From contig CAWBMP010000004.1 of NCBI GenBank assembly GCA_963790025.1, forward strand, positions 1,472,001 through 1,536,000: a stretch of DNA of 64,000 bases, read 5' to 3'. A model generated the notes under the pieces. That model was not told where the DNA came from, did not search any database, and saw only the letters and a program-made list of their open reading frames with translations. Position numbers and translations under genes: made by a program. Source of the DNA: Nitrospirota bacterium. GTDB taxonomy: Bacteria > Nitrospirota > Thermodesulfovibrionia > Thermodesulfovibrionales > Dissulfurispiraceae. This document shows positions 36,816 to 55,487 of this stretch, piece after piece (within the stretch, counting starts at the first letter, position 1; the number at the start of each line of letters is the position of its first letter).

Positions 36816-37778
36816 ATGACAGAGGACAGAAGACAGGGCAGCAATTCAGATAATAAGTGTAATGACGGATGTGTCTATTACGCTCAGGCGCTCCGTCTTG
36901 ACAGTTCTAACGGCCCGTTCGCTGCAGTCGCAAAATTCAGCCCTTCGGACTTCAGTTTCTCGCCTGCTTTACGCTCACTCTCCGAGAACTGTTACCAAAA
37001 CTCCGCGATTCGCTCCAGAGACACATCCGTCATTACACTGTCTGCTGTGCTTGTTTTTCTGATTATTCAACTCTCGGCAGTATTGTCTCCGGCATGGTCT
37101 TTTTCCATACCCGAAAAACTGCACTATGACCTCACCTGGGTAGGAATAAAGACCGGCGAGGCAGAGCTGGAGGTGAGAGAGACCGCCAAGGATATTCAGA
37201 TCATATCCAAAGCCAATTCGTCAGATTGGGCCTCAATATTCCATCGCGTAGACGACATCGTTGTCAGTACGATAAGAAAGGGTGAGAATAAGGGATATTG
37301 CGAGGGGTTCATCGGTGTGCCGCATAATTACCGGATAAAAATACACGAAGGCAGGTATCAGCGGGACAAGGAATTTCTCATGGACCACGTCGCAAAAAAA
37401 GTGACCTACACAAACTATCTCGCCAAGGAAAAGAAAGAGTTCGTTATCAATGAATCTACGCTCGATCCGCTTTCAAGTTTCTATTATGTCAGGATGCTCC
37501 CTCTTGAGGTGGGGAAATCCGTGTTTCTCGATGTATTTGACAGCAAGAAATTATACAAAGCAGAGGTCCAGGTGTTAAAAAGAGAAGTATTAGAGACCCC
37601 GGCAGGGACCTTTAAAACAGTGCTTATCAAGCCAATACTCAGATCGGAAGGCATCTTCTTTAAAAAGGGAGATATACTTATATGGCTCACTGATGACAGC
37701 AGGAAAATTCCGGTTATGGTTAAGACGAAGGTTGGTGTCGGCTCGGTGAAGGCGATACTTGTGGGCGGCCCGCAATGA
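36816..37778 (+). CDS. DUF3108-domain protein (start uncertain)
   Basis: EKLHYDLTW.GI..G, DPLS, TPAGTF, IWLTDDSRKIPV. Confidence 0.8.
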   Translation: MTEDRRQGSNSDNKCNDGCVYYAQALRLDSSNGPFAAVAKFSPSDFSFSPALRSLSENCYQNSAIRSRDTSVITLSAVLVFLIIQLSAVLSPAWSFSIPEKLHYDLTWVGIKTGEAELEVRETAKDIQIISKANSSDWASIFHRVDDIVVSTIRKGENKGYCEGFIGVPHNYRIKIHEGRYQRDKEFLMDHVAKKVTYTNYLAKEKKEFVINESTLDPLSSFYYVRMLPLEVGKSVFLDVFDSKKLYKAEVQVLKREVLETPAGTFKTVLIKPILRSEGIFFKKGDILIWLTDDSRKIPVMVKTKVGVGSVKAILVGGPQ

Positions 37779-39310: not shown

Positions 39311-40509
39311 TTATTTAGATAAGATGTACCCTCTGTTCTCCTTCAGCATCTTGAAAATAACACGGCAAAGATGACGACCAAGCGCACGTAGTGCCTGGTT
39401 ATGTTTCTTGCCTTCAGCTCTTTTTTTCTCATAATATTGTTGAGACTGCGGAACTTGTTTTCGGTGCCGATCTACGGCAACCATCATTGCGGCCTTAGCC
39501 CGAGTATTAACCTGCGTTGGTGGTTTTGATCCTTTTTGCTTGCCTGAACTATTGTCAAGATTCGCCATCCCAATATACAGAGCCAGACTTGCTTCGCTGC
39601 CAAAGCGCTCGATAGTTCCAATCTCTCCGGCGAGTTCAGATGTACAAATGGAACCGAATCCTGGAATGGTTGCGAGCGTTTGCGCAATATCCGAGCCGTG
39701 TGCAACACCCTCCATCTTTGCTTCAAGTGATTTTATCTTGGCATGGAGTTCCATCACGCGGATTGCATCTTCCTGGATCATTTCACCGACCCACTCGACG
39801 TCGTGACTAAACTGTGCTGTTTTCTGCCATTCAACAATAACAGAGGCATATTTCTTACCAATGCCCGGATCTTGCGGATAGTTGTTTCCCGCATGCGTGC
39901 AAGCGTGCGAAGGTCATCCGTGCTGGTCAGAAATCCAAGAAACCACATATTGTCGGCCTCACCGGTAATCTCCAGAAGTCCCGGACATACAGCGTGAAGA
40001 TCGGCCTGTAGGTTGTTTACTACCCGTACTCGCTCATCGACCAAACGACGCCGGCGCCGTGATAGCCGCTTTAGAATGTCGTTGTCCCGCGGCGTTTTGC
40101 GTACCTCCTGCAGCACATCCTTGGCTATCGGCAGATGATCTCGAAGCTGAAAAAGCTCCAGTCCTTTCCTTGCGTCGATTGCATCGGTCTTCGCGGCACC
40201 GGGGAATATCTCCTTGAATCGAGCAAGCTTGAGATTGTTGATATTGAAGAGGCGATAATTGCGGGCTCGAACGAGCGTGTCCAGCGGACGTGCGTAGCCG
40301 TTGAAGCCCTCCATTGCTACGGCAACGGGACAACTAAACCTTTGCTCCTGCTTCTCGATGCGACAGAAGAATTGCCGGAACCCTTCAGGTTCATGCACGA
40401 TTGAGAATTCATCGAGGACTTCACCGCTGGATAGGCCGATTGCAACGTTGTGACTGCGGCAGCCAATATCGACGCTTACACGCAGTTCGAGGGGATCATC
40501 TTTTTTCAT
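39311..40509 (-). pseudogene. IS110 recombinase with a one-base frameshift near 39865
   Basis: DEDD domain (VDIG, AMEG, KTDAIDA) and Tnp20 domain (TIPGFG, SSGK). Adding one C restores KIPGIG. Confidence 0.9.
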
Positions 40510-41931: not shown

Positions 41932-44274
41932 GTGGATCAGGCAACGCACAATAAGATAGTTTCCTTTATCTGGGGCATCGCCGACGATGTTCTACGCGAC
42001 CTGTTCAAGCGTGGTAAATACCCCGATGTTATTTTGCCGATGTGCGTATTGCGCCGGCTCGATGCAGTGCTGGAGCCAACAAAGAAAGCTGTGATAGAAA
42101 CGAAGGAGATGCTCGATAAGGCCGGTATCACTGAGCAACGCGCTGCGCTTTGTCAGGCCGCTGAGCAGGCTTTTTACAATACCTCGAAGTTTACACTTCG
42201 CGATCTGAAATCCCGGGGTAGCCAACAGCAGCTGAAGGCCGACTTTGAAGCCTATCTCGATGGCTTCTCGCCCAACATTCAGGACATCCTAGAAAACTTC
42301 AAGTTTCGTAATCAGATTTCCACACTTTCGAAGTCCGACTCCCTCGGCACATTGATAGAAAAGTTTCTCGACACTGAAATCAACCTCAGTCCTAATCCTG
42401 TGCTCAATAGCGACGGTTCGGTGAAACACCCGGGTATGGACAACCACTCCATGGGTACCGTATTCGAGGAACTTGTCCGGAAGTTTAATGAGGAGAACAA
42501 CGAGGAGGCTGGCGAGCACTGGACCCCACGTGATGCCGTAAAGCTGATGGCCAACCTCATTTTTCTGCCTATTGCCGATGTTATACAGTCCGGCTCTTAT
42601 CTGCTCTACGACGGCGCACTCGGTACTGGTGGCATGCTCACTGTAGCGGAAGAAACACTGAGAGGTATTGCTTCTAAAAGCGGCAAGCAGGTAACCACGC
42701 ATCTCTATGGCCAGGAAATCAACCCTGAGACCTATGCTATCTGCAAGGCTGACATTATTTTGAAGGGCGAAGGTGAAAACGCCGACCACATCGTCGGCGG
42801 CGCTGAATGGTCCACGCTTTCGCATGATGCCTTCCCGGCTCGTGAGTTCGACTTTATGCTCTCCAACCCGCCTTACGGCAAGAGCTGGAAGAAAGACCTC
42901 GAAAATATGGGTGGCAAGGATAGTATGCGCGATCCTCGCTTCAAGATCACTCATGCAGATGACCCCGACTATTCCCTTGTTACCCGCTCCAGTGACGGCC
43001 AGATGCTGTTCCTGGCAAACATGGCTGCTAAGATGAATCACAAAACACCGCTGGGCAGCCGTATTGCCGAGGTTCATAACGGTTCGTCTCTTTTTACCGG
43101 AGACGCCGGACAAGGAGAGAGCAACATCCGGCGTTGGCTTATCGAAAACGATTGGCTTGAGGCTATTGTCGCCCTTCCGCTCAATCTTTTCTACAACACC
43201 GGCATTGCCACCTATATCTGGGTGCTTACCAATCGCAAGCCCGAGCATCGCAAGGGCAAGGTGCAGCTAATCGACTCAACTCAATGGTTCAAACCCCTGC
43301 GTAAGAATCTCGGTAAAAAGAACTGTGAACTCTCCGAGGAAGACATTCGCCTAATCTGTGACACCTATATAGCTTTCAAGGCAAACGAACAGTCAAAAAT
43401 ATTCCCCAACGAGCACTTCGGCTATTGGAAGGTCATTGTTGAGCGTCCGCTTCGCCTGCACAGTCAGCTTACAGTAAAATCCATCGAATCGCTACGCTTT
43501 GCCTCTGGTGACGAAGATATCCGCTCACAGCTCTACGATGAGTTTGGCGAGGCCCTGTTCGATAACTTCGTCAGTGTTGAGAAGTCGTTGGAAAAACGGC
43601 TGGCCGACTGGGGCGCGGGTGACGAAGAGGACGATGCCGAAGATGGCGCAACCGCGAAGAGGGGACTTCCGGAAAAGAAAAAGAAGAGGCTCCTCGATTC
43701 CAGGACTTGGGAGCGTGATGCCCGGTTCATGGAAACTGCTAATGTCCTGCGACAGGAAATCGGAGGTGATCTCTTTGAGGACCACAACATCTTTCGCAAG
43801 GTTGTTGAAACTGCGCTTGAAAAACTCGGACGCAAAGTCTCCCCTGCTGATTCGAAGCTTGTCCTCCGCGCTGTAAGTTGGAGGGTTGAAACTGCCCCCC
43901 CTGTTATAGCTAAGGTGCACAAACCGAGCAAGACCACACCCGACCCACTGCATGGGCGATATGAGGCCAAATTAGACGGCAAGCAATGCGTGATCGAATA
44001 CGAGCCTGACATCGACCTGCGTGACACGGAACAGATACCGCTTCTTGAACCCGGTGGTATCGAAGCATTCATCCGCTGTGAAGTGTTGCCATACACACCC
44101 GATGCATGGATAAAGAAAGACGCCACCAAGGTTGGCTACGAGATCAGTTTTACGCGGCACTTCTACAAGCCCCAGCCGCTACGCACGCTGAAAGAAATCC
44201 ACGCTGATATTCTCATAGTAGAAAAAGAGGCGGAAGGATTGCTGGACGAACTGCTCAAGGACGGGACGAAGTGA
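41932..44274 (+). CDS. hsdM: Type I R-M methyltransferase subunit
   Basis: IWGIAD, AGEHWTPR, GTGGML, GQEIN, NPPY. Confidence 0.96.
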   Translation: MDQATHNKIVSFIWGIADDVLRDLFKRGKYPDVILPMCVLRRLDAVLEPTKKAVIETKEMLDKAGITEQRAALCQAAEQAFYNTSKFTLRDLKSRGSQQQLKADFEAYLDGFSPNIQDILENFKFRNQISTLSKSDSLGTLIEKFLDTEINLSPNPVLNSDGSVKHPGMDNHSMGTVFEELVRKFNEENNEEAGEHWTPRDAVKLMANLIFLPIADVIQSGSYLLYDGALGTGGMLTVAEETLRGIASKSGKQVTTHLYGQEINPETYAICKADIILKGEGENADHIVGGAEWSTLSHDAFPAREFDFMLSNPPYGKSWKKDLENMGGKDSMRDPRFKITHADDPDYSLVTRSSDGQMLFLANMAAKMNHKTPLGSRIAEVHNGSSLFTGDAGQGESNIRRWLIENDWLEAIVALPLNLFYNTGIATYIWVLTNRKPEHRKGKVQLIDSTQWFKPLRKNLGKKNCELSEEDIRLICDTYIAFKANEQSKIFPNEHFGYWKVIVERPLRLHSQLTVKSIESLRFASGDEDIRSQLYDEFGEALFDNFVSVEKSLEKRLADWGAGDEEDDAEDGATAKRGLPEKKKKRLLDSRTWERDARFMETANVLRQEIGGDLFEDHNIFRKVVETALEKLGRKVSPADSKLVLRAVSWRVETAPPVIAKVHKPSKTTPDPLHGRYEAKLDGKQCVIEYEPDIDLRDTEQIPLLEPGGIEAFIRCEVLPYTPDAWIKKDATKVGYEISFTRHFYKPQPLRTLKEIHADILIVEKEAEGLLDELLKDGTK

Positions 44275-45713
44275 TCGCCGACCTTGAGCCCTATCCGGAA
44301 TATAAGGAGTCGGGTCAGACGTGGCTTGGCTCGGTGCCGAAGCATTGGGAAGTCGCTCGTCTTGGCTCTATCGGTGTTTTTTCAGCGAGTGGCATAGACA
44401 AGAAAACAGTGCGGGGCCAGCCGCTAGTTCGAATGATTAATTACTTAGATATTTATAAGAACGCCTTCCATGAATTGCGAGCGAGCAGAGTCTACATGCA
44501 AGTAAGTTGCCCAGAATGGAAACGACGCGCCCATTCCGTCAGTGTTGGAGACATTTTTTTCACACCTAGCTCCGAAACCGAAGATGAAATCGGCTATTCT
44601 GCTGTTGCTGTAGAAGAGCTGCCGAACACTGTCTATAGCTATCACGTGATACGCTTCCAACCAAAACTTAATATAGACCTGAATTTTCGAAAATACTTCT
44701 GTAATAACCATAGAGTTCTTTCTCAGTTTTCTGTTGCATGTACGGGAACCACGCGCAAGATTCTTTCACGAGACGACTTCCGGAACATTATTATCACACT
44801 CCCCCCGTCAGACGAGCAATCCGCTATTGGCCGGTTTCTCGATCATGCAACCCGACGGATAGAGCGAGCTATGCGAGTTAAACAAGAGGTGATCGCGCTG
44901 CTGAACGAGCAGAAGCAGGTCATCATCCAACGCGCAGTCACCCGTGGACTCGATCCCAATGTGCCCTGTAGACCCTCTGGCAGTTCATGGATCAAGGATA
45001 TTCCAACGCATTGGAAGGTGTTACGGGCGAAATATGTCTTTCGCGAGATTGATGAGCGCTCAATCACCGGATCGGAGGAATTGTTATCTGTTTCCCACAT
45101 CACCGGGGTCACACCACGAAGTGAGAAAAACATCACTATGTTTAAGGCATCATCCTACATTGGCCACAAGCTCTGTCGTCCCGGGGATCTGGTAATCAAC
45201 ACGATGTGGGCATGGATGTCAGCGCTTGGTGTTTCAAAACTCATTGGTATTGTCAGTCCCTCCTACGCAGTCTACCGTCCGCGCAATCCCGAAAAGCTCG
45301 TCGACGAATACCTCGATCATCTTCTACGGACACGCTTATACGTATCTGAATATATATGCCGTTCAACCGGAATCAGATCGTCGCGGTTGAGGCTTTATCC
45401 AGAGGAATTCTTTAAGATTCCTATTCTTCTACCGCCTGTTGAGGAGCAGAAGAGAATAGTTCATCAAATATCTTCGAAGACTGCTGACATGAGTACTGCT
45501 ATCCACCGCACCGAGCGCGAAATCACCCTGCTTCGCGAATACCGCACCCGCTTGATCGCCGATGTAGTCACGGGCAAGCTTGATGTGCGCAAGGCGGCGA
45601 AGAATCTGCCGGATGAGGCGGCTGAATCGGGTATAATGATGGATGAGGATGAAATACCGGCTGGGGATGATGAGATGGGGGACGGAATGAGCGCTGAGGA
45701 TGGAGAGTTATGA
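44271..45713 (+). CDS. hsdS: Type I R-M specificity subunit
   Basis: Two TRDs with LPP.DEQ / LPPVEEQ helices, LIADVVTGKLDVR; overlaps the hsdM stop. Confidence 0.95.
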   Translation: MIADLEPYPEYKESGQTWLGSVPKHWEVARLGSIGVFSASGIDKKTVRGQPLVRMINYLDIYKNAFHELRASRVYMQVSCPEWKRRAHSVSVGDIFFTPSSETEDEIGYSAVAVEELPNTVYSYHVIRFQPKLNIDLNFRKYFCNNHRVLSQFSVACTGTTRKILSRDDFRNIIITLPPSDEQSAIGRFLDHATRRIERAMRVKQEVIALLNEQKQVIIQRAVTRGLDPNVPCRPSGSSWIKDIPTHWKVLRAKYVFREIDERSITGSEELLSVSHITGVTPRSEKNITMFKASSYIGHKLCRPGDLVINTMWAWMSALGVSKLIGIVSPSYAVYRPRNPEKLVDEYLDHLLRTRLYVSEYICRSTGIRSSRLRLYPEEFFKIPILLPPVEEQKRIVHQISSKTADMSTAIHRTEREITLLREYRTRLIADVVTGKLDVRKAAKNLPDEAAESGIMMDEDEIPAGDDEMGDGMSAEDGEL

Positions 45714-46367
45714 GCCCTGTCCCTGCAGACCCCAAAATCTACCACATCACCCACCTGCGCAATTTGCCGGAGATTATTCAATCCGGCTGCCTTTGGTCTG
45801 ATGCCAAGCGCCTTGAGTTATGCCTTGACTGCGAAATCGTTGGCATGTCCGCGATCAAGCAGCGGCGACTAAAAGAAATTGAAGTCGATTGCAATTCGGG
45901 TACTAAAGTCGGTGAATACGTGCCCTTCTATTTTTGCCCTCGCTCGATAATGCTTTATATACTGCACATGGGCAACCATCCAGGATCTTAATTATCGGGA
46001 AGGGCAACACCCCATCGTGCATCTCCAGGCCGACCTGATGGCGACTATTCGATGGGCGAAGGATCATGGTGTCCTATGGGCCTTTTCTGATTGCAATGCT
46101 GGTACATACTACACCAATTTTTATAACCGAAGAAGAGATTTGGACAAGGTGAATTGGGCCGCTGTTCACTCGAGTGATTTCAGAGATATGCTTGTCAAAG
46201 AAGGCAAACAGGCCGAGTTTCTGGTCTATGAGTCCTTTCCCTGGCATCTGATAGAAAAAATCGGGGTTTGCGATACTCATATTGCTGATAAGGTGAATAT
46301 AATTTTGGATCGTGCCGGCATCACCCATCATCCGGCTATTCTTAAGAAGCCGTCATGGTATTATTAA
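45710..46367 (+). pseudogene. darT: DarT DNA ADP-ribosyltransferase toxin (DUF4433) with +1 frameshift at 45983-45984
   Basis: YHITHLRNL, YVPFYFCPRS, SDCNA, KQAEFLV. Removing one G gives HPDLNYREGQHPIVHL. Confidence 0.9.
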
Positions 46368-46382
46368 AGTAGGGGGGAAGTT

Positions 46383-47429
46383 ATGATAAAATTGCATCGC
46401 GGAGACATTCTAAAAGCTGATGCCGAGGCTCTGGTCAATACAGTAAACTGCGTTGGTGTTATGGGACGTGGTATTGCGCTGCAATTCCGCAAGAAATTCC
46501 CCGGGAATTACGAGGAATATCGGCAGATGTGCGACAAGGGCAAGCTCATGATTGGAATGATGATGGTCCACGATCTCCATAGTCTGATGAACCCTCGATT
46601 TATTATTAACTTTCCAACCAAGCGCCATTGGAAGGGGAAGAGCCGCATTGAGGATATTAAGGCGGGGCTAAAAGCTTTAGTCGAGGAAGTGCGTGCTTAT
46701 GGTATTCGCTCAATCGCGATTCCACCTCTCGGATGCGGACTGGGAGGGCTGGACTGGAATGATGTGCATCGGTTAATTGAAAAGGCTTTTAGTGAGCTTC
46801 CTGAAGTCCAGGTGTTTCTCTACGAACCTTCTGGAGCACCACCTGCCGAGGAGATGCCCAAAGAAAGGCGAATACCTCCGATGACCAGCGGGCGTGCTGC
46901 GCTACTGGGTCTGATGCAGCGTTATTTGCAAGCGGTTCTGGATCCATTTGTCTCGCTGTTGGAGATCCACAAACTGATGTATTTCATGCAGGAGAGCGGC
47001 GAAAATCTCAAACTGCGTTTTCAGAAGGGAACATACGGTCCTTATGCCGAGAACCTACGACATGTTTTAAGCGCTATCGAAGGGCATTTTATCAGCGGTT
47101 ATGGCGATGCCGAAGACCGTCCCGACAAGCAGATCGAGTTAATATCTGATGCTGTCGAGCATGCAGAATCGGTCTTGAGAGATAATCCTCAAACCATGGT
47201 TCGCTTTGATCGAGTAGTTGACCTGATCAAGGGTTTCGAAACTCCTTATGGAATGGAACTCTTATCAACCGTACATTGGGTTATTACACGAGATGACGCC
47301 GCAACAAGTGACGAGGCTATTTCCAAAACATACGCATGGAACGATAGAAAACGAATGTTTGCAGAGACACATATTCGACTGGCCCTGGATGTTTTACAGC
47401 GCAAGGGTTGGTTGAAGTTAGGCACATGA
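46383..47429 (+). CDS. darG: DarG macrodomain antitoxin
   Basis: VNTVNCVGVMGRGIALQF, INFPTKRHW, PPLGCGLGGL, YGPY, MELLSTVHW. Confidence 0.95.
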   Translation: MIKLHRGDILKADAEALVNTVNCVGVMGRGIALQFRKKFPGNYEEYRQMCDKGKLMIGMMMVHDLHSLMNPRFIINFPTKRHWKGKSRIEDIKAGLKALVEEVRAYGIRSIAIPPLGCGLGGLDWNDVHRLIEKAFSELPEVQVFLYEPSGAPPAEEMPKERRIPPMTSGRAALLGLMQRYLQAVLDPFVSLLEIHKLMYFMQESGENLKLRFQKGTYGPYAENLRHVLSAIEGHFISGYGDAEDRPDKQIELISDAVEHAESVLRDNPQTMVRFDRVVDLIKGFETPYGMELLSTVHWVITRDDAATSDEAISKTYAWNDRKRMFAETHIRLALDVLQRKGWLKLGT

Positions 47430-50400
47430 CTTCAGATACCAGTGAAAAAGGCCTCGAAGACCTGATCATGCGCTACATGACTGGCAAAGATGGTCTCGCG
47501 CCGGTCTCTACTGAAGGTGTGGCGGAAGAGACTGAGTCTATTGGCGGTAGCGGTTGGATCGCAGGGCATGCGGTCTTCTACGATCGGGGTCACGCACTGG
47601 ATTCAGCAGAGCTCTTTTCCTTCCTCCAGGCCACCCAGCCGGAAGAGTTCAAAAAACTCGGTATTGGAAACTACAAAGACACGAAGGATATCGCACGTCT
47701 GAAGTTTTTCGCTCGATTAAGCAGCGATATCGCCAAGCGCGGTGTGATTGACGTGCTCCGGCACGGCATCAAACATGGGGCGCTTTCTTTCGACCTGTTT
47801 TATGGCACGCCCTCACCTGGCAACGACAAGGCGACACGGTTATTCTCTGCCAACCGGTTCAGCGTTACCCGTCAGCTTCGATACAGCCTAGATGAGACAC
47901 GCCGGGCACTGGATCTGTGCTTGTTTATCAACGGCCTGCCCTTTGCGACTTTCGAATTGAAGAATAGCCTGACAAAGCAGACAGTTGAGGATGCCATGGA
48001 GCAATACAGACGCGACCGAGACCCAAGGGAGACGCTGTTTCAGTTCGGGCGCTGCATGGTCCATTTCGCTATGGATGACCACGAGGTGCGGATGTGCACC
48101 GCATTGAAGGGCTCAAAGGCGCCAAGGATTCATGGTTTCTCCCCTTCAACCAGGGCTGGAACGAAGGTGCGGGCAATCCGCCCAACCCGGCGGCGTTAAA
48201 GACCGATTATCTATGGAAGAAGCATTCTGATTCCTCGGGGAATCACCGACATCATGGAAAACTATGCCCAGATCGTAGAGGAGAAGAACGAGAAGACGGG
48301 GAAGAAGAGGCGAGAGCAGATTTTCCCCCGCTATCACCAGCTCGACGTGGTGCGCAAACTTCTCGCCGATGTGGCGTGAAATGGCGCCGGGCAAACGGTA
48401 TCTCATCCAGCACTCTGCTGGCAGCGGCAAGTCGAACTCCATCGCCTGGCTGGCGCACCAGTTATCGGGCTGCGCAAGGACGATGAGGAGGTTTTCGACT
48501 CAATCATCGTCATCACCGACCGACGTATCCTCGATAGGCAAATTCGAGGCGACAATCAAGCAGTTTCGCCCAGGTTTGCGCGATTATCGGGCGTGCAAAA
48601 GCGACGCCAGTCGAAACCTGCAGCTTGCAAGTTCATAGAGAGCGGCAAGAAGATAATCATCACCACAGTGCAGACGTTCCCCTTCATCCTTGACGAGATC
48701 GGAGAGGAGCATCGGGGCAGGAAGTTCGCCATCATCATTGACGAAGCCCATTCCAGCCAGGGCGGCCGTACAGCTGCCGCAATGAGCATGGCATTGTCCG
48801 AGCCGGGAAGACAGGATAAACGAAACGACCGAGGACAAATCAACCGCATCATCGAGTCGCGGAAGATGCTGACCAACGCCAGCTACTTCGCCTTCACAGC
48901 CACGCCGAAGAACAAGACCCTGGAGATGTTCGGCAGCCATATCCGGGTGAGGACGAGGTGAAGCACCGTCCTTTCCACAGCTACACGATGAAGCAGGCAA
49001 TACAGGAGGGTTTCATTCTCGACGTGCTCAAGAGCTACACGCCAGTGGACAGCTACTACAGCCTCGTCAAGACCATCGAGGGCGATCCGGAATTCGACAT
49101 GAAGAAGGCGCAAGAAGAAACTGCGACAGCTACGTCGAGAGTCACGACAAGGCCATCCGGCGAAAGGCCGAGATCATGGTAGACCACTTCCATGAGCAGG
49201 TAATCGGTCAGAACAAGATCGGCGGGCAGGCGCGGGCGATGGTCGTCATGCGGCGGATCAACGGGCGATCCAGTATTTCTCATGCTTTCCGCGAGTACCT
49301 CGAGAAGACGGAAAAGCCCGTACAAGGCCATCGTCGCCTTCTCCGGCGAGCAGGAATACAGGCGGCGAGAAGGTCAGCGAGGCAAAGCTAAACGGGTTCC
49401 CGAGCAACGACATCGCGGACAAGATTCAGGAAGACCCATATCGCTTCCTCATCTGCGCCGACAAGTTCCAGACTGGCTACGACGAGCCGCTGCTGCACAC
49501 GATGTATGTGGACAAGCCGCTGTCCGGCATAAAAGCCGTGCAGACGCTCTCTCGCCTGAACCGGGCGCACCCCAAGAAACACGACGTGTTCGTGCTCGAC
49601 TTCCAGAACAACACAGAGACAATCAAGTATGCGTTTGCGGACTATTACCGCACCACCATCCTCAGCAAGGAGACGGATCCGAACAAACTCCACGATCTAA
49701 AAGAGGCATTGGACAGGTATCAGGTGTATGCGCCGGAGCAGGTTGAGACCCTGGTGAAGCCTCTATCTGGATGGTGCGGAGCGCGACAAACTCGATCCGA
49801 TTCTCGACACATGTGTGGCGGTGTATGATGAACGAGCTTGACGAAGACGGGCAGGTGGATTTCAAGGGCAAGGCCAAGGCGTTCACCCGCACATATGACT
49901 TCCTCGCGACAATTCTCCCATACGGCAACGCGGAGTGGGAAAAACTCTCGATTTTCCTGAAGTTTCTCATGCCGAAGTTGCCCGCACCCAAGGAAGAAGA
50001 CCTCGCAAAAGGAATCCTCGAAGCCATCGACATGGACAGCTATCGGGCTGAGAAGAAGGCTGCCATGAAAATTATGCTTTCTGACGAGAACGCAGAGATC
50101 AATCCCATGCCGGTTGACGATGGTCACAGAAAAGCGGAGCCAGAAATGGATAGGCTCAGCAACATTCTGAAGATGTTCAATGAACAGTTCGGGACCCTCT
50201 TTACCGACGGCGACCGTATTATCCGTCGGATCACCGAAGACATCGCCCCGAAGGTTGCCGAGGACCAACCCTATCAAAACGCCAAGAAAAACACTCCGGA
50301 TACGGCGCGTATTGAACTGGACGCTGCGCTAATGCGTGTGGTCGGTCCTTTGCTGAAGGACGACACCGAATTCTACAAGCAGTTCGTTCAGAACGAGTCG

Positions 50401-50463
50401 TTCAAACGATTTGTGACAGACATGGTTGTCAAACTCACAGGCGGATCGAACGTTTACAGGTAG
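47426..50463 (+). pseudogene. hsdR: Type I R-M restriction subunit, fragmented by many frameshifts (about 48100-49830)
   Basis: ELKN nuclease motif, HSAGSGKS, IIDEAH, FTATPK, QTGYDEP, VQTLSRLNR spread across different frames. ATGA-coupled to darG. Confidence 0.92.
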
Positions 50464-50688
50464 CCTTTATTAATTAGATGTGAGACATTTAGGCGGCGCA
50501 TAACACCTGATTCTGAACAGTCCCGACATCTCAGGAACACCGTTGATTTCCGGGTATAACCTTGCGTCGCGCATGTAGCTTGGTCATTTGGACGCACTGA
50601 CTGAAAGCAAGTAGTGATAAGATAGAATGGATAGGTCCGCGAAGATTGGCCCCGTAGGCATTTGACCAGCATGATCTTGTAATAATAA

Positions 50689-52020
50689 TTAAGAAGTAAG
50701 TAAGAGATTCAAAGATGCGATTTTTGTATTGTAAAACTCCCTAAAGACATCATCAACATTCTTTTTATTTTGAAACGTGTACATGTGCTCTATGCGGAAT
50801 GCATCTAAGGCTTTTGTAAGAACAAAATCAGCAATCTCCTTTCGTCCGATTACAGCAAGAGAGGGAGACAAAGACGAGAATTCGGCAACTATTTCTCTTT
50901 CGTAGTAATCAGTAATCAAATGTGCAGGATTTAAATCAAATATGAATAAGAAATCTGACATAGTTTTAAGAGTTAAATATTTTTGATCGCTCAATAATTT
51001 AGAGATAACAATGTTATATCTTTGAGACTCACCTAATAAAAGGGCAGCGCCGCGCTGCAGGATTCCAAGTGGCATTTTATATTGTAAGCCAAATGCATCT
51101 AAGTCAGTCCATGGTAACCTATCTAATACCGAAAAGCCAGACTGACTGATAAAATCTAAGAATAAAGACGATACATCATTTGATGACAAATCTTGAACAG
51201 CTTGTGATATGGCTTCCTCCAACTCAGATAAGTTACTGTTCAACTGATCGGGATTGTAAATCGGTCCTTTATTCCAATAATGCGAAAACTTACTAGCAAA
51301 TGATTCACAAGTTATATCTTTATTAAACTCGAAGATATGCTGCTCTTCATCTACCGGTAGATATTTCTGAACAGTCAGCCAATCCGGCGAATTCTCAACA
51401 AGAACATCAATGATTTTGTCTATTACCGCAGTCATGGTACCGTCTGCCTGTACCTCAATGACTTTTTCACCGAGGTTTCTAAGATACTCGATAGCTTCAG
51501 CATACTTCTTCTTTGTCTGGTTAAGATTCCTTTCGAAGAGCTCCTTTGTTTCTTGGCGATTCCTCATTCGATCATAACAGGTAGAACTACTCGCGTTTAA
51601 AAAAATGGTCAAGTCTGGTTTTAGAACACCTGAATTAAGGTTCATTATATTATCAAAAGAGAGGTCGCCATTACTCTGATAAACTAATGATGATAGATAA
51701 TAGCGATCACAAACAACAAGGCGCGGCGTTCCGTTTGCCTGATTGAGAAAAGGAATAATTTCCCTATCACAGTGATCAGCTCGATTGACCGCAAAGGCAA
51801 GAGCCAGTGTTCGGTGAGGAACATCTTTAAGTTTGCGCATTAATATTTGTCGGATAAATAGGCCAGCACAAGAAGGATCATGAGGTTCAAATGTCAACTT
51901 GACATTCTTGCCCAAGGTGGACTGAAGTATCTTAACCAACCGACGGGTTATTGAGCTTTTTCCTGACCCATCGACTCCTTCAATAACCACAAAAAAACCA
52001 TTAGTATTATTACTTTCCAT
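50689..52020 (-). CDS. Thymidylate kinase domain fused to about 230 aa of unknown C-terminal domain
   Basis: IEGVDGSGKS, TFEP, DRYYLSSLVYQ, PDLTIFL in the first ~210 aa. Confidence 0.88.
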   Translation of the reverse strand: MESNNTNGFFVVIEGVDGSGKSSITRRLVKILQSTLGKNVKLTFEPHDPSCAGLFIRQILMRKLKDVPHRTLALAFAVNRADHCDREIIPFLNQANGTPRLVVCDRYYLSSLVYQSNGDLSFDNIMNLNSGVLKPDLTIFLNASSSTCYDRMRNRQETKELFERNLNQTKKKYAEAIEYLRNLGEKVIEVQADGTMTAVIDKIIDVLVENSPDWLTVQKYLPVDEEQHIFEFNKDITCESFASKFSHYWNKGPIYNPDQLNSNLSELEEAISQAVQDLSSNDVSSLFLDFISQSGFSVLDRLPWTDLDAFGLQYKMPLGILQRGAALLLGESQRYNIVISKLLSDQKYLTLKTMSDFLFIFDLNPAHLITDYYEREIVAEFSSLSPSLAVIGRKEIADFVLTKALDAFRIEHMYTFQNKKNVDDVFREFYNTKIASLNLLLTS

Positions 52021-52143
52021 ATATTATATTAACTCTTTTATAATGTAGAACATCAAAATTAAATATTAGTAGATCTTATCCAATTATACAATCACTTTGT
52101 CAATTTAGAATATGATGCAGTCGGATCATATTCTATCAGTTCA

Positions 52144-53307
52144 TTAAGAAGATATGCTTTCAACCAGTTTAAGAAAAGCTGCTACCCAAGGTCCCGCAGC
52201 CAAATTTGTTAGTAACCCAGTGATTACAGTTCTGTTTTCAGAAGGCAGCTGGGCTATGGTCTCAGCTAAATGATTAATATTTTCCTGGGTTACTTTATGG
52301 GTGTCAGTTAAATCTTGTACTTGTCGAAGCATGTCCGATAAGCTCCCAGATAGTTCCTCATTCTTATTGGATATGAGAACCTTCAATTCATTTGTCAAAT
52401 TCTGAATTTCACTCATCAATAGTGTGTCAACCCTATATTCCTTATCGCCAAGCACTATTTTACGACCACTCATTTCAAATAGAGCTATAGCTTTATCGAT
52501 TGTCAAGAGAGCACCTCCATCAGAAAACGATGCTCTATTTGCAGGTACCTCATGAGCAATTCTACCCAAAGTGTTTCCTAAAACCGGAGGGCAAGTACAC
52601 ACAGGATTGTTACATTCTTTGCATTTATCAGGATACTCTTCCTTAAATGCTTTTGACAGAGGCTTGCCTCTGTCAGAATAGTGGACTTGGTTTTTCATGT
52701 CAATAAGATTTTGTAAATGCATTAGCCATGCAAAAACATCTGCTGCTTCACTTAAAAAATACCCTGGTGCAACATTAAATACCCGTAATGCCTCTGCGAG
52801 TTCCCCCAATTCTTCAGTAAACCTTGCGAAAGTTGCTGGGTAGTCCTCGACAGCTGACACCGTATAGATTTTTCCGAACATTTGTTGCCATTCTTTCAAA
52901 TTCTTCGGTTTATCTTTTATGTTTGTGTTGCCCAATTCTTGCAATCTATCCCAATCTGGACTGATGGGCAGTTTCTTCATTTCAATGCACTGATCATTAT
53001 CGTGAGGTTTTCGAAGACAGTAAGTACATGCATTTGGGAATTTCCACCATATCATATTCTCTACGCTCTGAACACCGACCTTTCCACAGAGTGTCATCCA
53101 CCATGCTATTGCTTTGGCGACAAATTGTTGAGGGTCAACATTTGCTTTCTTCTTCGAACTTGCTAAAAGACTTAGCGCGCCCATTACCTCAACAAGATGC
53201 GCAAATATCGAGAATTGATCACGGTAAAAATTTCTGTCCAAATAAATAGAATTAACCATACGATATAATTCGTCTAACCCTCTAACTTCCCAATCTTGAC
53301 TTTTCAC
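52144..53307 (-). CDS. Tandem MazG-like nucleotide pyrophosphohydrolase with Cys/Zn motifs
   Basis: Repeat 2 has EELGELAE...EAADVFAW + YPDKCKECNNPVCTC. Repeat 1 is degenerate with FPNACTYC. RBS GGAG and GTG start. Confidence 0.85.
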   Translation of the reverse strand: MKSQDWEVRGLDELYRMVNSIYLDRNFYRDQFSIFAHLVEVMGALSLLASSKKKANVDPQQFVAKAIAWWMTLCGKVGVQSVENMIWWKFPNACTYCLRKPHDNDQCIEMKKLPISPDWDRLQELGNTNIKDKPKNLKEWQQMFGKIYTVSAVEDYPATFARFTEELGELAEALRVFNVAPGYFLSEAADVFAWLMHLQNLIDMKNQVHYSDRGKPLSKAFKEEYPDKCKECNNPVCTCPPVLGNTLGRIAHEVPANRASFSDGGALLTIDKAIALFEMSGRKIVLGDKEYRVDTLLMSEIQNLTNELKVLISNKNEELSGSLSDMLRQVQDLTDTHKVTQENINHLAETIAQLPSENRTVITGLLTNLAAGPWVAAFLKLVESISS

Positions 53308-53534
53308 GCAATTTCTCCGAAAACGATGCCTGATATCTGATCAGATATCGTATGAACCTATATCAGAATTAAAGTAGTATAAGATAGCATATTTGCACTA
53401 TCATGGGAAATTATTTCGAAAGGCTCGATATTCAAGCGGACTCGTAAGGTAAATCTTCCATGATAAAATACCTCTATGGAATACCACACCGGTACAAGTA
53501 GGAAAACAGTAGGCGCCCTTGAGATGGGCACAGT

Positions 53535-54580
53535 AGGGGTCAATTCTTTATTATTGACAAATAATTGCAAAATTTGGCAATATTTTTCGTGGCGAGACTA
53601 TTAAGAATTCAGTATCCGGGTGCCCTTTATCACGTAACGAGCAGGGGGAACGAGCGCAGGGAAATATTCAGCAACGATGATGATCGAGAGCACTTTCTGC
53701 AAATTCTTTGCAACTCACTGACCATCTACTCTGTAAAACTATATAGCTATGTACTGATGACGAACCATTTTCATTTATTAGCTGACACGCCCTTGGGCAA
53801 TCTCGGGGAATTCATGAGGCATTTTAATATTACGTATACTGGTTTTTATAACCGTAAATATAATAGGACTGGACATCTTTATCAGGGCAGGTACAAGAGC
53901 ATCCTTGTTGAGAAGGATGAATATCTGTCCATCGTAAGCCGGTATATACATCTCAATCCGGTAAGAACCAAGTCAATGAGGGAAAAGACTGCCGAAGAAA
54001 AAATAAATGACCTATTACAGTACAGATGGAGCAGCCTGTCAGGTTATATTGGTGGGAGAAAAGATCAAATGGTGCAATACGGCTTGGTTTTAGGGGAGTA
54101 TGGGGGAGATAATTATCATGGCCGGCAGGCATACAAAAAAAGGATTCAAAAGGATATAGCAGAGGGGCTGGAAATAAACTCAGGCATACTTGCACAGAGC
54201 GTGCTGGGCGGCCCTGAATTCATCAATATTATTAAAGAGAAATTCATCAAGGGGAAGAAAGACAGAGAAAGTCCGGCCCACAGAGAACTGAAGCGATACA
54301 AGGCTGAAGAAGAAATCATGAAGGTTATTGAGCGGGAAACGGGAATAAGTTTTAAGGAGATCGCTAAATCCAGGGGCGTTATAAGACAAATTGCTATGGA
54401 CATTTTATACCGTATCGGAGGATTGAAAGGGAATGAGATTGGCGAGATATTCAAAGTGGACTACAGCACTGTAAGTCAGGGGAGGAAACGTTTGCGGGAA
54501 CAAATGGAGAAAGATATAAAACTGAAGAATCTTGTTCGGTCTATCGAAGAACAATTGTCAAAATAAAAGAATTGACCCCT
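53535..54580 (+). mobile_element. TIR-bounded RAYT-like (HUH Y1) element
   Basis: 26-bp IRs AGGGGTCAATTCTTTATTATTGACAA (53535-60) and rc of 54555-80, 23/26 identical. Confidence 0.82.
53589..54566 (+). CDS. REP-associated tyrosine transposase-like protein with C-terminal HTH
   Basis: YHVTSRGN, LMTNHFHLL (HUH), GHLYQGRY, YIHLNPV, YRWSS, C-terminal DYSTVS HTH. Confidence 0.92.
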   Translation: MARLLRIQYPGALYHVTSRGNERREIFSNDDDREHFLQILCNSLTIYSVKLYSYVLMTNHFHLLADTPLGNLGEFMRHFNITYTGFYNRKYNRTGHLYQGRYKSILVEKDEYLSIVSRYIHLNPVRTKSMREKTAEEKINDLLQYRWSSLSGYIGGRKDQMVQYGLVLGEYGGDNYHGRQAYKKRIQKDIAEGLEINSGILAQSVLGGPEFINIIKEKFIKGKKDRESPAHRELKRYKAEEEIMKVIERETGISFKEIAKSRGVIRQIAMDILYRIGGLKGNEIGEIFKVDYSTVSQGRKRLREQMEKDIKLKNLVRSIEEQLSK

Positions 54581-54778
54581 TTGAATCGCGTGAGCAGGTC
54601 GCGCCGACATTCTCAAAAACCCGCTTGCATTTTGAGATTCCAATAGTTAATATTTAAAGGACTTAGATCAGATGATTTTACTGTCTCTAAATCTGGTATT
54701 TTGTAGACAACGAAAATTTGAGAACATCTAATATCTGAGAACGATCAAAACTGCAGGTCAACAGGAGCATGTGCTCAC

Positions 54779-55321
54779 ATGAAAAAAATGCAGCTCAGTA
54801 AAGCGTTCACGCTGATAGAATCTGGTCCGGTTGTTCTTGTTACGACAAGTAACGGAAAGAAAGACAATATAATGACGATCTCGTGGACCATGGTGATGGA
54901 CTTTACGCCGATCTTTGCCATAACCACTGGGCCATGGAACTACTCGTATGCCGCACTTCGGAAATTTAAGGAATGTGTAATTTCAATTCCCACTGTTGAC
55001 CTTCTTGATAAGGTCGTTGGTGTGGGAACATGTTCCGGCGTTGACACGGACAAATTTGAAAAGTTCCGGCTGACTCCTGTGAAGGGAAAGTATGTTAGGT
55101 CGCCCTTGATTAAGGAATGCCTGGCGAATATCGAATGTAAAGTTATCGACATCGTCCAAAGGCACAATATCGTTGTCCTCGAAGGTGTCGCTGCTTACTT
55201 TGACAGTTCGCGAAAAGAGAAGCGAACCGTTCACGCAATTGGCGATGGAACCTTTATAGTGGATGGGCGCAGGTTAGACCGAAAGAAAATGATGCAGACA
55301 AAGATTCCAGCTGGGCTTTAG
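54779..55321 (+). CDS. Flavin reductase-like protein
   Basis: PVVLVTT, NIMTISW, GTCSG...DKF, ECLANIEC. Confidence 0.9.
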   Translation: MKKMQLSKAFTLIESGPVVLVTTSNGKKDNIMTISWTMVMDFTPIFAITTGPWNYSYAALRKFKECVISIPTVDLLDKVVGVGTCSGVDTDKFEKFRLTPVKGKYVRSPLIKECLANIECKVIDIVQRHNIVVLEGVAAYFDSSRKEKRTVHAIGDGTFIVDGRRLDRKKMMQTKIPAGL

Positions 55322-55487
55322 TTCCGTGCCGAATTTTGGGGATTCTATTGTTACTCCCCTATAACAGGATCGATCTCGTGGGTGTGGTGGTGGGACAAGT
55401 CTGACCCCATTTGCATCAAACGGCAAAATATCGAGTGCAACCTGTGCCATCTTGCTCCTGTTTGGGTGCATAATATCCATATCAAAA

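Follow-up and report, generated by a model that had tools for sequence, protein, structure and literature searches.

Among the closest described counterparts of the locus presented here are immune systems in which a nucleotide kinase accompanies another nucleotide-directed enzyme. According to the respective reports, the defensive deoxycytidine triphosphate (dCTP) deaminase requires both its kinase and its deaminase domain, and the depletion that it causes ends in deoxyuridine monophosphate (dUMP) through the host dUTPase (10.1101/2021.04.26.441389). AvcD, of the AvcID system, deaminates dCTP as well as dCMP (PMC10511110). A nucleoside monophosphate (NMP) kinase of the CMPK2 family is a facultative partner of viperin, present with 12% of the bacterial viperins (10.1101/2023.09.13.557418), and DefensePredictor counts MazG, MazG-C (nucleotide kinase) and dUTPase among its predicted but not yet validated defence domains, whereas systems containing thymidylate-synthase and dNMP-kinase domains did receive validation there (PMC13092281). 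Here, we present a pair of genes from a Nitrospirota bacterium (family Dissulfurispiraceae, GenBank assembly GCA_963790025.1, contig CAWBMP010000004.1, positions 1,472,001 to 1,536,000 of the forward strand), located in a stretch of 64,000 nucleotides (nt) that we call the window. Gene 1 encodes a double MazG-like protein, and gene 2 encodes a thymidylate kinase (Tmk) extended by a C-terminal domain, the long Tmk. We tentatively read the pair as an accessory module acting on the pool of pyrimidine deoxynucleoside triphosphates (dNTPs), probably antiviral and a deaminase-less relative of the kinase/deaminase dCTP-depletion systems, and assign this reading a probability of about 0.4. A preliminary description of the stretch had proposed a nucleotide-pool antiphage system; the surplus status of both genes, their island setting, the recurrent gene order and the lack of a named match favour this proposal, and the facultative pairing and the lack of a demonstrated enrichment near defence genes count against it.

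The locus resembles AvcD and the dCTP deaminases in combining a module of nucleotide-kinase fold with pyrimidine-deoxynucleotide chemistry, and relatives of gene 1 carry the deaminase domain dCMP_cyt_deam_1 and adjoin an extra Tmk. It differs from them in that the pair in the window has no deaminase domain according to Pfam, in that a complete Tmk, encoded on its own and extended by a further domain, provides the kinase, and in the presence of an all-alpha pyrophosphatase. No PADLOC match to the dCTP deaminases was obtained for the window proteins or for three deaminase fusions of the gene 1 family, and a search for an antitoxin-like RNA of the kind found in type III toxin-antitoxin systems returned no Rfam match and no meaningful tandem repeats. 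With viperin, the locus shares the facultative, genetically linked kinase, here a Tmk at 10 of 26 MazG-like loci; the viperin kinase feeds a synthase of chain terminators, whereas the partner in the window is a hydrolase, and substrate supply would therefore make a cycle and not a product. The coupling of a nucleoside triphosphate (NTP) pyrophosphohydrolase to a nucleotide kinase also recalls the MazG and MazG-C domains of DefensePredictor, but gene 1 has no MazG-C match and the kinase is a separate Tmk; the locus is set apart from the DefensePredictor clusters by the text of that report only, and overlap with them is possible.

The preliminary description recognised no named system with a MazG-Tmk pairing, and this holds in PADLOC v2.0, which gave no system-level match and contains no model for gene 1 or for the three deaminase fusions, and in the literature, where we found no description of a MazG/dUTPase-like plus Tmk defence pair, nor of PDC-M51. 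The latter (components A and B) had been considered as a candidate and was rejected: gene 2 matches PDC-M51B (8.4e-18) over residues 100-204 only, ordinary-looking Tmks reach 49-69 bits with the same model, and gene 1 lacks a PDC-M51A match. VakA was likewise discarded, as its model matches any Tmk. We regard the pair as a variant within the nucleotide-pool systems, the defence role itself being unproven.

Domain structure of the two proteins

Gene 1 has 511 homologues with 42-57% identity in many phyla, and conservation was assessed in alignments of 25 and of 78 sequences. These alignments and an AlphaFold model (predicted local distance difference test, pLDDT, 88.5) bear out the architecture first described from the letters, namely two MazG repeats, the first degenerate and the second with its catalytic set, a Cys motif after each, and a helical tail (Table 1). 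Among the 78 aligned homologues, E40, G43, W69 and W70 of repeat 1 are invariant and H37 nearly so. In the first knuckle C94 is invariant, and C97, H102 and C107 are invariant in the 25 sequences and conserved to at least 90% in the 78. E166, E169, E172, E187 and D190 of repeat 2 are invariant in the 78 sequences, and the acids align to the EExGE...ExxD residues of 1vmg, hence the ExxE...ExxD metal-binding set is present. The Pfam model MazG (PF03819) scores 13.1 bits (E 0.12, residues 159-207), below its gathering cut-off of 22, and the sequence profile of gene 1 finds 1vmg in the PDB (E 1.7e-4, residues 132-200). The model is all-alpha, with the catalytic module forming a four-helix bundle, and in a Foldseek search against the PDB it gave nothing at E <= 0.001. 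No Pfam MazG-C match was found in gene 1 at E up to 1, and the tail yields only generic helical matches.

Judged from the model, the core of gene 1 folds like MazG and the dimeric dUTPases, with which its sequence has marginal similarity (the staphylococcal phage Dut 5myd and the Campylobacter jejuni enzyme 1w2y among the dUTPases, 1vmg and 7yh5 for MazG), and it looks like a single-chain version of the pseudo-dimer of these enzymes. In contrast to them, one chain of gene 1 supplies both halves, the first of which is degenerate, and the protein additionally carries a pair of invariant Cys knuckles and a 108-residue helical tail. The protein is predicted to be a zinc-stabilised, all-alpha NTP pyrophosphatase that would convert dNTP to dNMP and pyrophosphate (PPi), with only the second half being catalytic.

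For gene 2, the proposed intact Tmk with about 230 extra residues was confirmed by Pfam (Thymidylate_kin, PF02223, residues 13-202, E 6e-33), by TIGR00041 (115.8 bits, cut-off 83.25) and by the catalytic motifs. A total of 274 homologues was collected, a profile match of the Tmk domain in the PDB has an E value of 6e-26, and the AlphaFold2 model reaches a pLDDT of 89.4. Gene 2 has the same fold and catalytic motifs as the canonical thymidylate kinases (TIGR00041; 4dwj, 2wwf, 4tmk) and lies above their curated cut-off: G15-x-D17-G18-x-G20-K21, F76, R80, D105-R106-Y107, Y114-Q115, R151 and R155 are conserved in its family and common to canonical Tmks. From Tmk structures, we take these residues to include the P-loop Lys, the base-stacking Phe/Arg and the LID arginines. 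Unlike the canonical enzymes, gene 2 has TFEPHDPS in place of the TREPGGT-type segment, is a second copy in its genome and carries a C-terminal domain of ~190 residues. We predict that gene 2 is an active second kinase for dTMP (possibly dUMP) and that its appended domain is probably regulatory.

This C-terminal domain stands apart from described families. Residues 215-443 (~230 aa) have no family match; a search of the domain against PDB sequences returned 0 matches at E up to 10, and Atlas features gave a best score of 0.79 and no family. Its profile retrieved 75 clusters (E <= 0.001) from 1.84 billion representative proteins. In most of them the domain occupies residues ~230-420 of a protein of ~350-530 aa, and in ~30 shorter rows (77-333 aa) it lies nearer the start; these lengths and positions fit the long-Tmk type, and from them alone no new fusion partner is evident. 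The preliminary description had noticed an echo of an Mrr-like restriction endonuclease. The order of secondary structure elements assigned by DSSP in the model (H257-277, H280-293, E297-302, E308-315, E321-329, H335-354, E357-362) is indeed compatible with a restriction-endonuclease-like core, but the relationship was not confirmed: hhalign against one Mrr_cat protein gave a probability of 0.3%, and fold searches with the full protein (PDB, BFVD) returned kinases, with no fold match for the isolated domain. Among 29 aligned C-terminal domains, only one Pro, one Gly and one Gln are invariant and the acids of TDLDA vary; D356 and R375 are conserved to ~90%, and no standard PD-(D/E)xK motif is evident, as judged without structural superposition.

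Surplus status, distribution and linkage of the two families

Both genes are supernumerary in their genome. A canonical tmk (194 bits) adjoins holB (G000:C4:929995-930564) and outscores gene 2, so that gene 2 is not the housekeeping copy; the preliminary description had named the opposite case, gene 2 as the only housekeeping tmk, as a finding that would speak against it. The genome also holds a Dut-type dUTPase and a tandem MazG elsewhere, and a search of 60 relatives, nine species of the same genus among them, did not recover gene 1.

Scanning one genome per species (185,579 species), we found the gene 1 family at 27 loci in at least 10 phyla, with 42-57% identity; one locus is a 41-residue fragment, leaving 26 substantial ones. 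Most of these genomic copies have an N-terminal dCMP_cyt_deam_1 domain (PF00383) and lack the tail. The form in the window, without deaminase and with tail, recurs intact in L084, L085, L086, L101 and L103 and broken in L106, and a few triple forms of deaminase, core and tail exist, as in L102. Copies are broken in L104, L105, L106, L107 and L109. Furthermore, we noticed a metagenomic protein of 750 aa (P0302) in which a Ser/Thr protein-kinase domain is fused to the deaminase and the MazG-like core, suggesting regulated or signalling versions of the family. At an Anaerolinea locus (L093:2259-6768), two to three Tmk-family genes, including the best-scoring tmk of the genome, stand with a dCTP-deaminase-like gene of the DCD fold and a deaminase-MazG fusion. 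In four genomes bearing the MazG-like gene, a tandem pair of weak Tmk-like genes (~64-83 bits) was seen away from it (G068:C4:44636-45941, G069:C21:108507-109674, G073:C69:54203-55326 and G075:C93:66907-68221); these pairs may represent another kinase-based cassette.

A Tmk-family gene lies within 2.6 kb of the MazG-like gene at L092, L093, L095, L097, L099, L101, L103, L104, L105 and L108, i.e. the 10 of 26 loci mentioned above, and immediately downstream of it in L101, L103, L104 and L108. In five of the ten genomes a better canonical tmk exists elsewhere, and the adjacent Tmk is therefore extra there, and four genomes have no better copy than the adjacent one or no other copy at all; this count leaves out the L103 genome and also G075 (L107), which has no confirmed adjacent Tmk. 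From the side of the kinase, a metagenome scan yielded 80 loci, 43 of which have the long form (42 by tblastn, L149 by a hidden Markov model, HMM). A pyrophosphatase directly upstream of the long type of Tmk, as in the window, was observed in L104, L112/L113 and L140, where the kinases are 46-59% and the cores 47-57% identical; the partner in L112, L113 and L140 is the deaminase fusion. Two further pairs may exist, going by equal contig size only (P0003/P0124, both on contigs of 32,687 nt, and P0016/P0172, both on 7,170).

A maximum-likelihood tree built from 77 kinase domains by a quick search places all six MazG-linked kinases in one clade of 17 rows (SH-like approximate likelihood ratio test, SH-aLRT, 95). 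The labels require four changes on this tree, a degree of clustering that 7 of 500 shuffles equalled. Moreover, the long Tmk is a second copy in all five tested genomes of the linked clade (G000, G073, G076, G077 and G078). The link between the MazG-like and the long-Tmk families is thus real, clade-specific and facultative, so that of the conserved pairing envisaged at the outset the gene order shared with other lineages stands and the constancy does not.

The long Tmk was also encountered next to other enzymes. In L126 (266-1513) it directly follows a PADLOC dGTPase (E 3e-56), and in L127 (5384-7186) and L205 (4199-5953) it lies beside weak HD/dGTPase-like proteins, which hints at a tendency of this kinase to occur with dNTP hydrolases of differing folds.

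A possible defence role and its alternatives

In the mechanism that we consider, the horizontally acquired pair would act on pyrimidine deoxynucleotides and, being in an island, most likely against phages through a disturbance of the dNTP pool. We infer that gene 1 hydrolyses a pyrimidine dNTP (dCTP, dUTP or dTTP), since the deaminase fusions suggest dC/dU nucleotides and dUTPases are the best match in fold; the pair would then reshape the pyrimidine dNTP pools. The pyrophosphatase core, a deaminase and an extra Tmk together would comprise the activities of the kinase-deaminase dCTP-depletion enzymes plus a dUTPase step, with the window representing a deaminase-less arrangement. Activation by infection and an antiviral effect are presumed, and depletion as well as a toxin with its counter-enzyme, both raised in the preliminary description, are conjectural mechanisms. 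By analogy to the viperin-linked NMP kinases, the dTMP kinase may serve in substrate supply or sensing; it may also be a counter-enzyme, or it may take part in a cycle that consumes ATP, in which the hydrolase returns dNDP/dNTP to dNMP. A bolder version, which we consider a long shot, is a two-enzyme futile cycle that burns ATP in abortive infection: Tmk would phosphorylate dTMP or dUMP, the dUTPase-like enzyme would return the di- or triphosphate to the monophosphate, and the C-terminal domain and the tail would hold the cycle off until infection. In a wider sense, immunity based on pyrimidine dNTPs would draw on a single toolkit in which kinase, deaminase and all-alpha pyrophosphatase (or HD dNTPase) modules can replace one another, and the known kinase-deaminase enzymes would be one arrangement of it.

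The link to defence is suggestive. Using PADLOC matches with E <= 1e-12 as the criterion for a defence neighbour, we scanned 81 of the 147 neighbouring open reading frames (ORFs) at the MazG-like loci (omitted were the focal genes, Tmks, transposases and ORFs with plain metabolic Pfam domains; L086 was scanned separately) and, as a control, all 149 neighbouring ORFs at 25 ordinary Tmk loci. The neighbours identified at MazG-like loci are a full-length AbiU (L084), a type III methylase and restriction enzyme, one on each side (L086), CARF (L088), a SIR2-STAND protein (L096), a PDC-M30/M41 pair (L098), QatC (L100), AbiEi/AbiEii (L106) and PDC-S34 (L109). In L086 (2624-10323), the tail-bearing MazG-like gene sits between the methylase (PADLOC E 4e-166) and the restriction-enzyme-like gene as if it were part of a restriction-modification (R-M) operon. 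The control matches comprise seven to mad3/AriA/mad8, one to mad2 and one to QatD (TatD-like). Six of the seven mad3/AriA/mad8 matches concern a protein of ~214-323 aa in related Bathyarchaeota, and one a protein of 1021 aa (L058). Unlike the test matches, those of the control look like cross-matches to housekeeping families. Hits covering at least 80% of the model were obtained at ~4 of 26 versus 1 of 25 loci, which is not significant.

Several observations weigh against an immune function of the pair. A defence neighbour was found at 8 of the 26 MazG-like loci versus 9 of the 25 control loci; enrichment near defence genes, which the preliminary description had named as a check, is therefore not demonstrated. 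No Tmk is nearby at 16 of the 26 MazG-like loci, and the exact pair of the window occurs at one of them (L104). A MazG-like gene is upstream at 3 of the 43 metagenomic long-Tmk loci (L112 and L113, with the same sequence, and L140), marking the pairing as facultative, and at 0 of 8 genomic ones other than L104 (L004, L005, L007, L010, L014 and L204-L206). A MazG-Tmk fusion of the 'Rosetta stone' kind was not found among longer proteins, the sole match being a fusion of protein kinase, deaminase and core, and this absence is weak evidence. In addition, it is not obvious how depletion would make use of a kinase whose product is dTDP.

Alternatively, the pair may belong to pyrimidine metabolism or house-cleaning outside immunity, the pyrophosphatase clearing dUTP, dCTP or pyrimidine dNTPs that are damaged or modified, Tmk boosting dTDP, and both riding as passengers in the island. 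Deaminase, pyrophosphatase and Tmk are the ordinary route from dC to dT nucleotides, and in Chloroflexota the MazG-like gene has the best-scoring tmk as its direct neighbour in L101, L103 and L093, with gmk close by in L101, an arrangement that, in L101 and L093, fits ordinary pyrimidine metabolism. In Bacteroidota and Phototrophicaceae (G001-G005) the genome has either no Tmk besides the long one or none that is better, and the long Tmk often has housekeeping neighbours, and many long-Tmk loci adjoin rplS, cysS, polA or RNase Y; outside the linked clade, in these two groups, the long Tmk looks like a housekeeping enzyme. The control likewise gave no measurable excess of neighbours matching defence models. 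We nevertheless consider this explanation rather unlikely for the window, where the genome already possesses tmk, dut and mazG, where gene 1 was not found in the 60 relatives, and where, within the clade, the long Tmk always comes in addition to another tmk; moreover, the gene 1 family shows a patchy distribution and, with 27 loci in the 185,579 species, is very rare, several copies are broken (the five listed above), and hallmark defence genes occur among some of the neighbours.

The two genes could also be functionally independent and neighbours by chance, each a stand-alone accessory enzyme. Most members of either family occur without the other, the tail and the C-terminal domain of Tmk do not co-vary (no Tmk accompanies the tail in L084-L086, and most long Tmks occur without a MazG-like gene), and a gap of 123 nt separates the genes. 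Against this stand the recurrence of order and orientation in L104, L112/L113 and L140 and the presence of some Tmk within 2.6 kb at 10 of the 26 loci; both families are rare, and repeated chance adjacency is therefore very unlikely, which makes independence improbable as an account of the pair. The low GC, the IS110 element, the RAYT unit and the decayed neighbouring genes, as well as integrase, relaxase or transposase genes near L109, L085, L121, L131 and L136, would suit cargo that benefits a mobile element or phage, that is, a leftover module for nucleotide supply or counter-defence and not host immunity. Phages commonly encode Tmk, MazG and dCMP deaminase, and the Tmk domain of gene 2 matches PHROG 761. 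Yet no relative of the MazG-like core was found in the viral contigs of IMG/VR, the PHROG search with gene 1 gave only a match of 0.0027 in the tail, and the island has no phage structural or replication genes according to Pfam; we judge an origin as such cargo to be very improbable.

If the pair does defend, it would add a pyrophosphatase-based route to dNTP-pool immunity, which so far comprises dCTP deaminase and dGTPase. It would also point to a rare cross-phylum family built on one zinc-knuckled, MazG/dUTPase-like core that associates with a deaminase, a Tmk or a protein kinase, and assign a function to an appended Tmk domain without relatives. The pair also provides a case in which to examine why immune enzymes directed at nucleotides so frequently have a nucleotide kinase at their side. 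Should the role be metabolic, the locus is a caution that surplus nucleotide enzymes in defence islands, even those with exotic domains, need a measured background before they receive an immune label.

The island and its borders

As originally reported, the two genes form a co-oriented pair of low GC content between a type I R-M/darTG cluster and a RAYT element (Table 1). The GC content is 0.34-0.41 over positions 50500-53500, compared with 0.50-0.57 over 47500-50500 in the preceding hsdR region. A search for consensus promoters and terminators in the spacer between the genes called none. An ORF of 72 aa (50454-50672, minus strand) had been considered as a third gene and was dropped; its composition is odd, and it has no counterpart downstream in L112 or L120.

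Table 1 Positions of the described features in the window (ORF, open reading frame; R-M, restriction-modification).
Feature	Position	Strand	Description	Basis
Gene 1	52144..53307	-	387 aa, GTG start, GGAG before start	ORF and translation
Gene 1, repeat 1 (residues 7-92)	53032..53289	-	Degenerate MazG-like four-helix module, only E40 of the acidic set kept (HLVEVMG)	
Gene 1, Cys/His knuckle 1	52987..53028	-	C94, C97, H102, C107	
Gene 1, repeat 2 (residues 130-227)	52627..52920	-	Catalytic MazG-like module; E165/E166-x-x-E169...E172, E187-x-x-D190	
Gene 1, Cys knuckle 2	52591..52623	-	C229, C232, C237, C239; invariant in 78 sequences	
Gene 1, helical tail (residues 280-387)	52147..52470	-		Model
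Spacer between gene 1 and gene 2	52021..52143	-	123 nt	
Gene 2	50689..52020	-	443 aa, ATG start	ORF and translation
Gene 2, Tmk domain (residues 8-213)	51382..51999	-	P-loop GxDGSGKS, TFEPHDPS, F76/R80, D105-R106-Y107, Y114-Q115, LID R151/R155	
Gene 2, C-terminal domain (residues 257-442)	50695..51252	-	Alpha/beta; motifs LFLD, PWTDLDA, QRGxALLL, SDF, YERD, SP	
Type I R-M context	41932..50463	+	With embedded DarT (split) and DarG	Pfam, ORF frames
hsdM	41932-44274	+		Pfam
hsdS	44271-45713	+		Pfam
DarT	45710-45991 and 46017-46367	+	Two frames	Pfam
DarG	46383-47429	+	Macro domain	Pfam
hsdR	47408-50463	+	At least 5 ORF pieces in differing frames	Pfam, ORF frames
IS110 transposase	39311-40509	-	Split in two	Pfam
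RAYT/IS200-like unit	53535..54580	+	Gene 53565-54566, Y1_Tnp and Bac_DnaA_C	Pfam

Similarity to genomes of the same genus ends at ~38,645 and restarts at 54,590. The interval from 38.65 to 54.59 kb has no match at the same-genus flanks, and this stretch of ~16 kb is therefore strain-specific. The RAYT unit, whose gene is flanked on both sides by inverted repeats of 26 nt that are 88% complementary, stops 10 nt before the similarity restarts and thus marks the right edge of the strain-specific stretch. In the same-genus genomes the two flanks of the island are not contiguous, and a clean insertion site could not be drawn. According to Pfam, an RNase_H_2 protein is also among the island neighbours. 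The genes for hsdR, DarT and the IS110 transposase are fragmented and the pair of genes 1 and 2 is intact; either the island is truly decaying or the assembly contains indel errors at these breaks.

The flavin-reductase region to the right of the island (54590-55365) is 92-94% identical to the same-genus genomes, compared with only 76-84% for the left flank, and is either unusually conserved or recently transferred. To the left of the island, a repeat of ~190 nt at ~36840-37045 has many copies in this genome and in those of the same genus, resembles a miniature inverted-repeat transposable element (MITE) or a repetitive extragenic palindromic (REP) sequence, and overlaps the start of a predicted ORF at 36816-37778.

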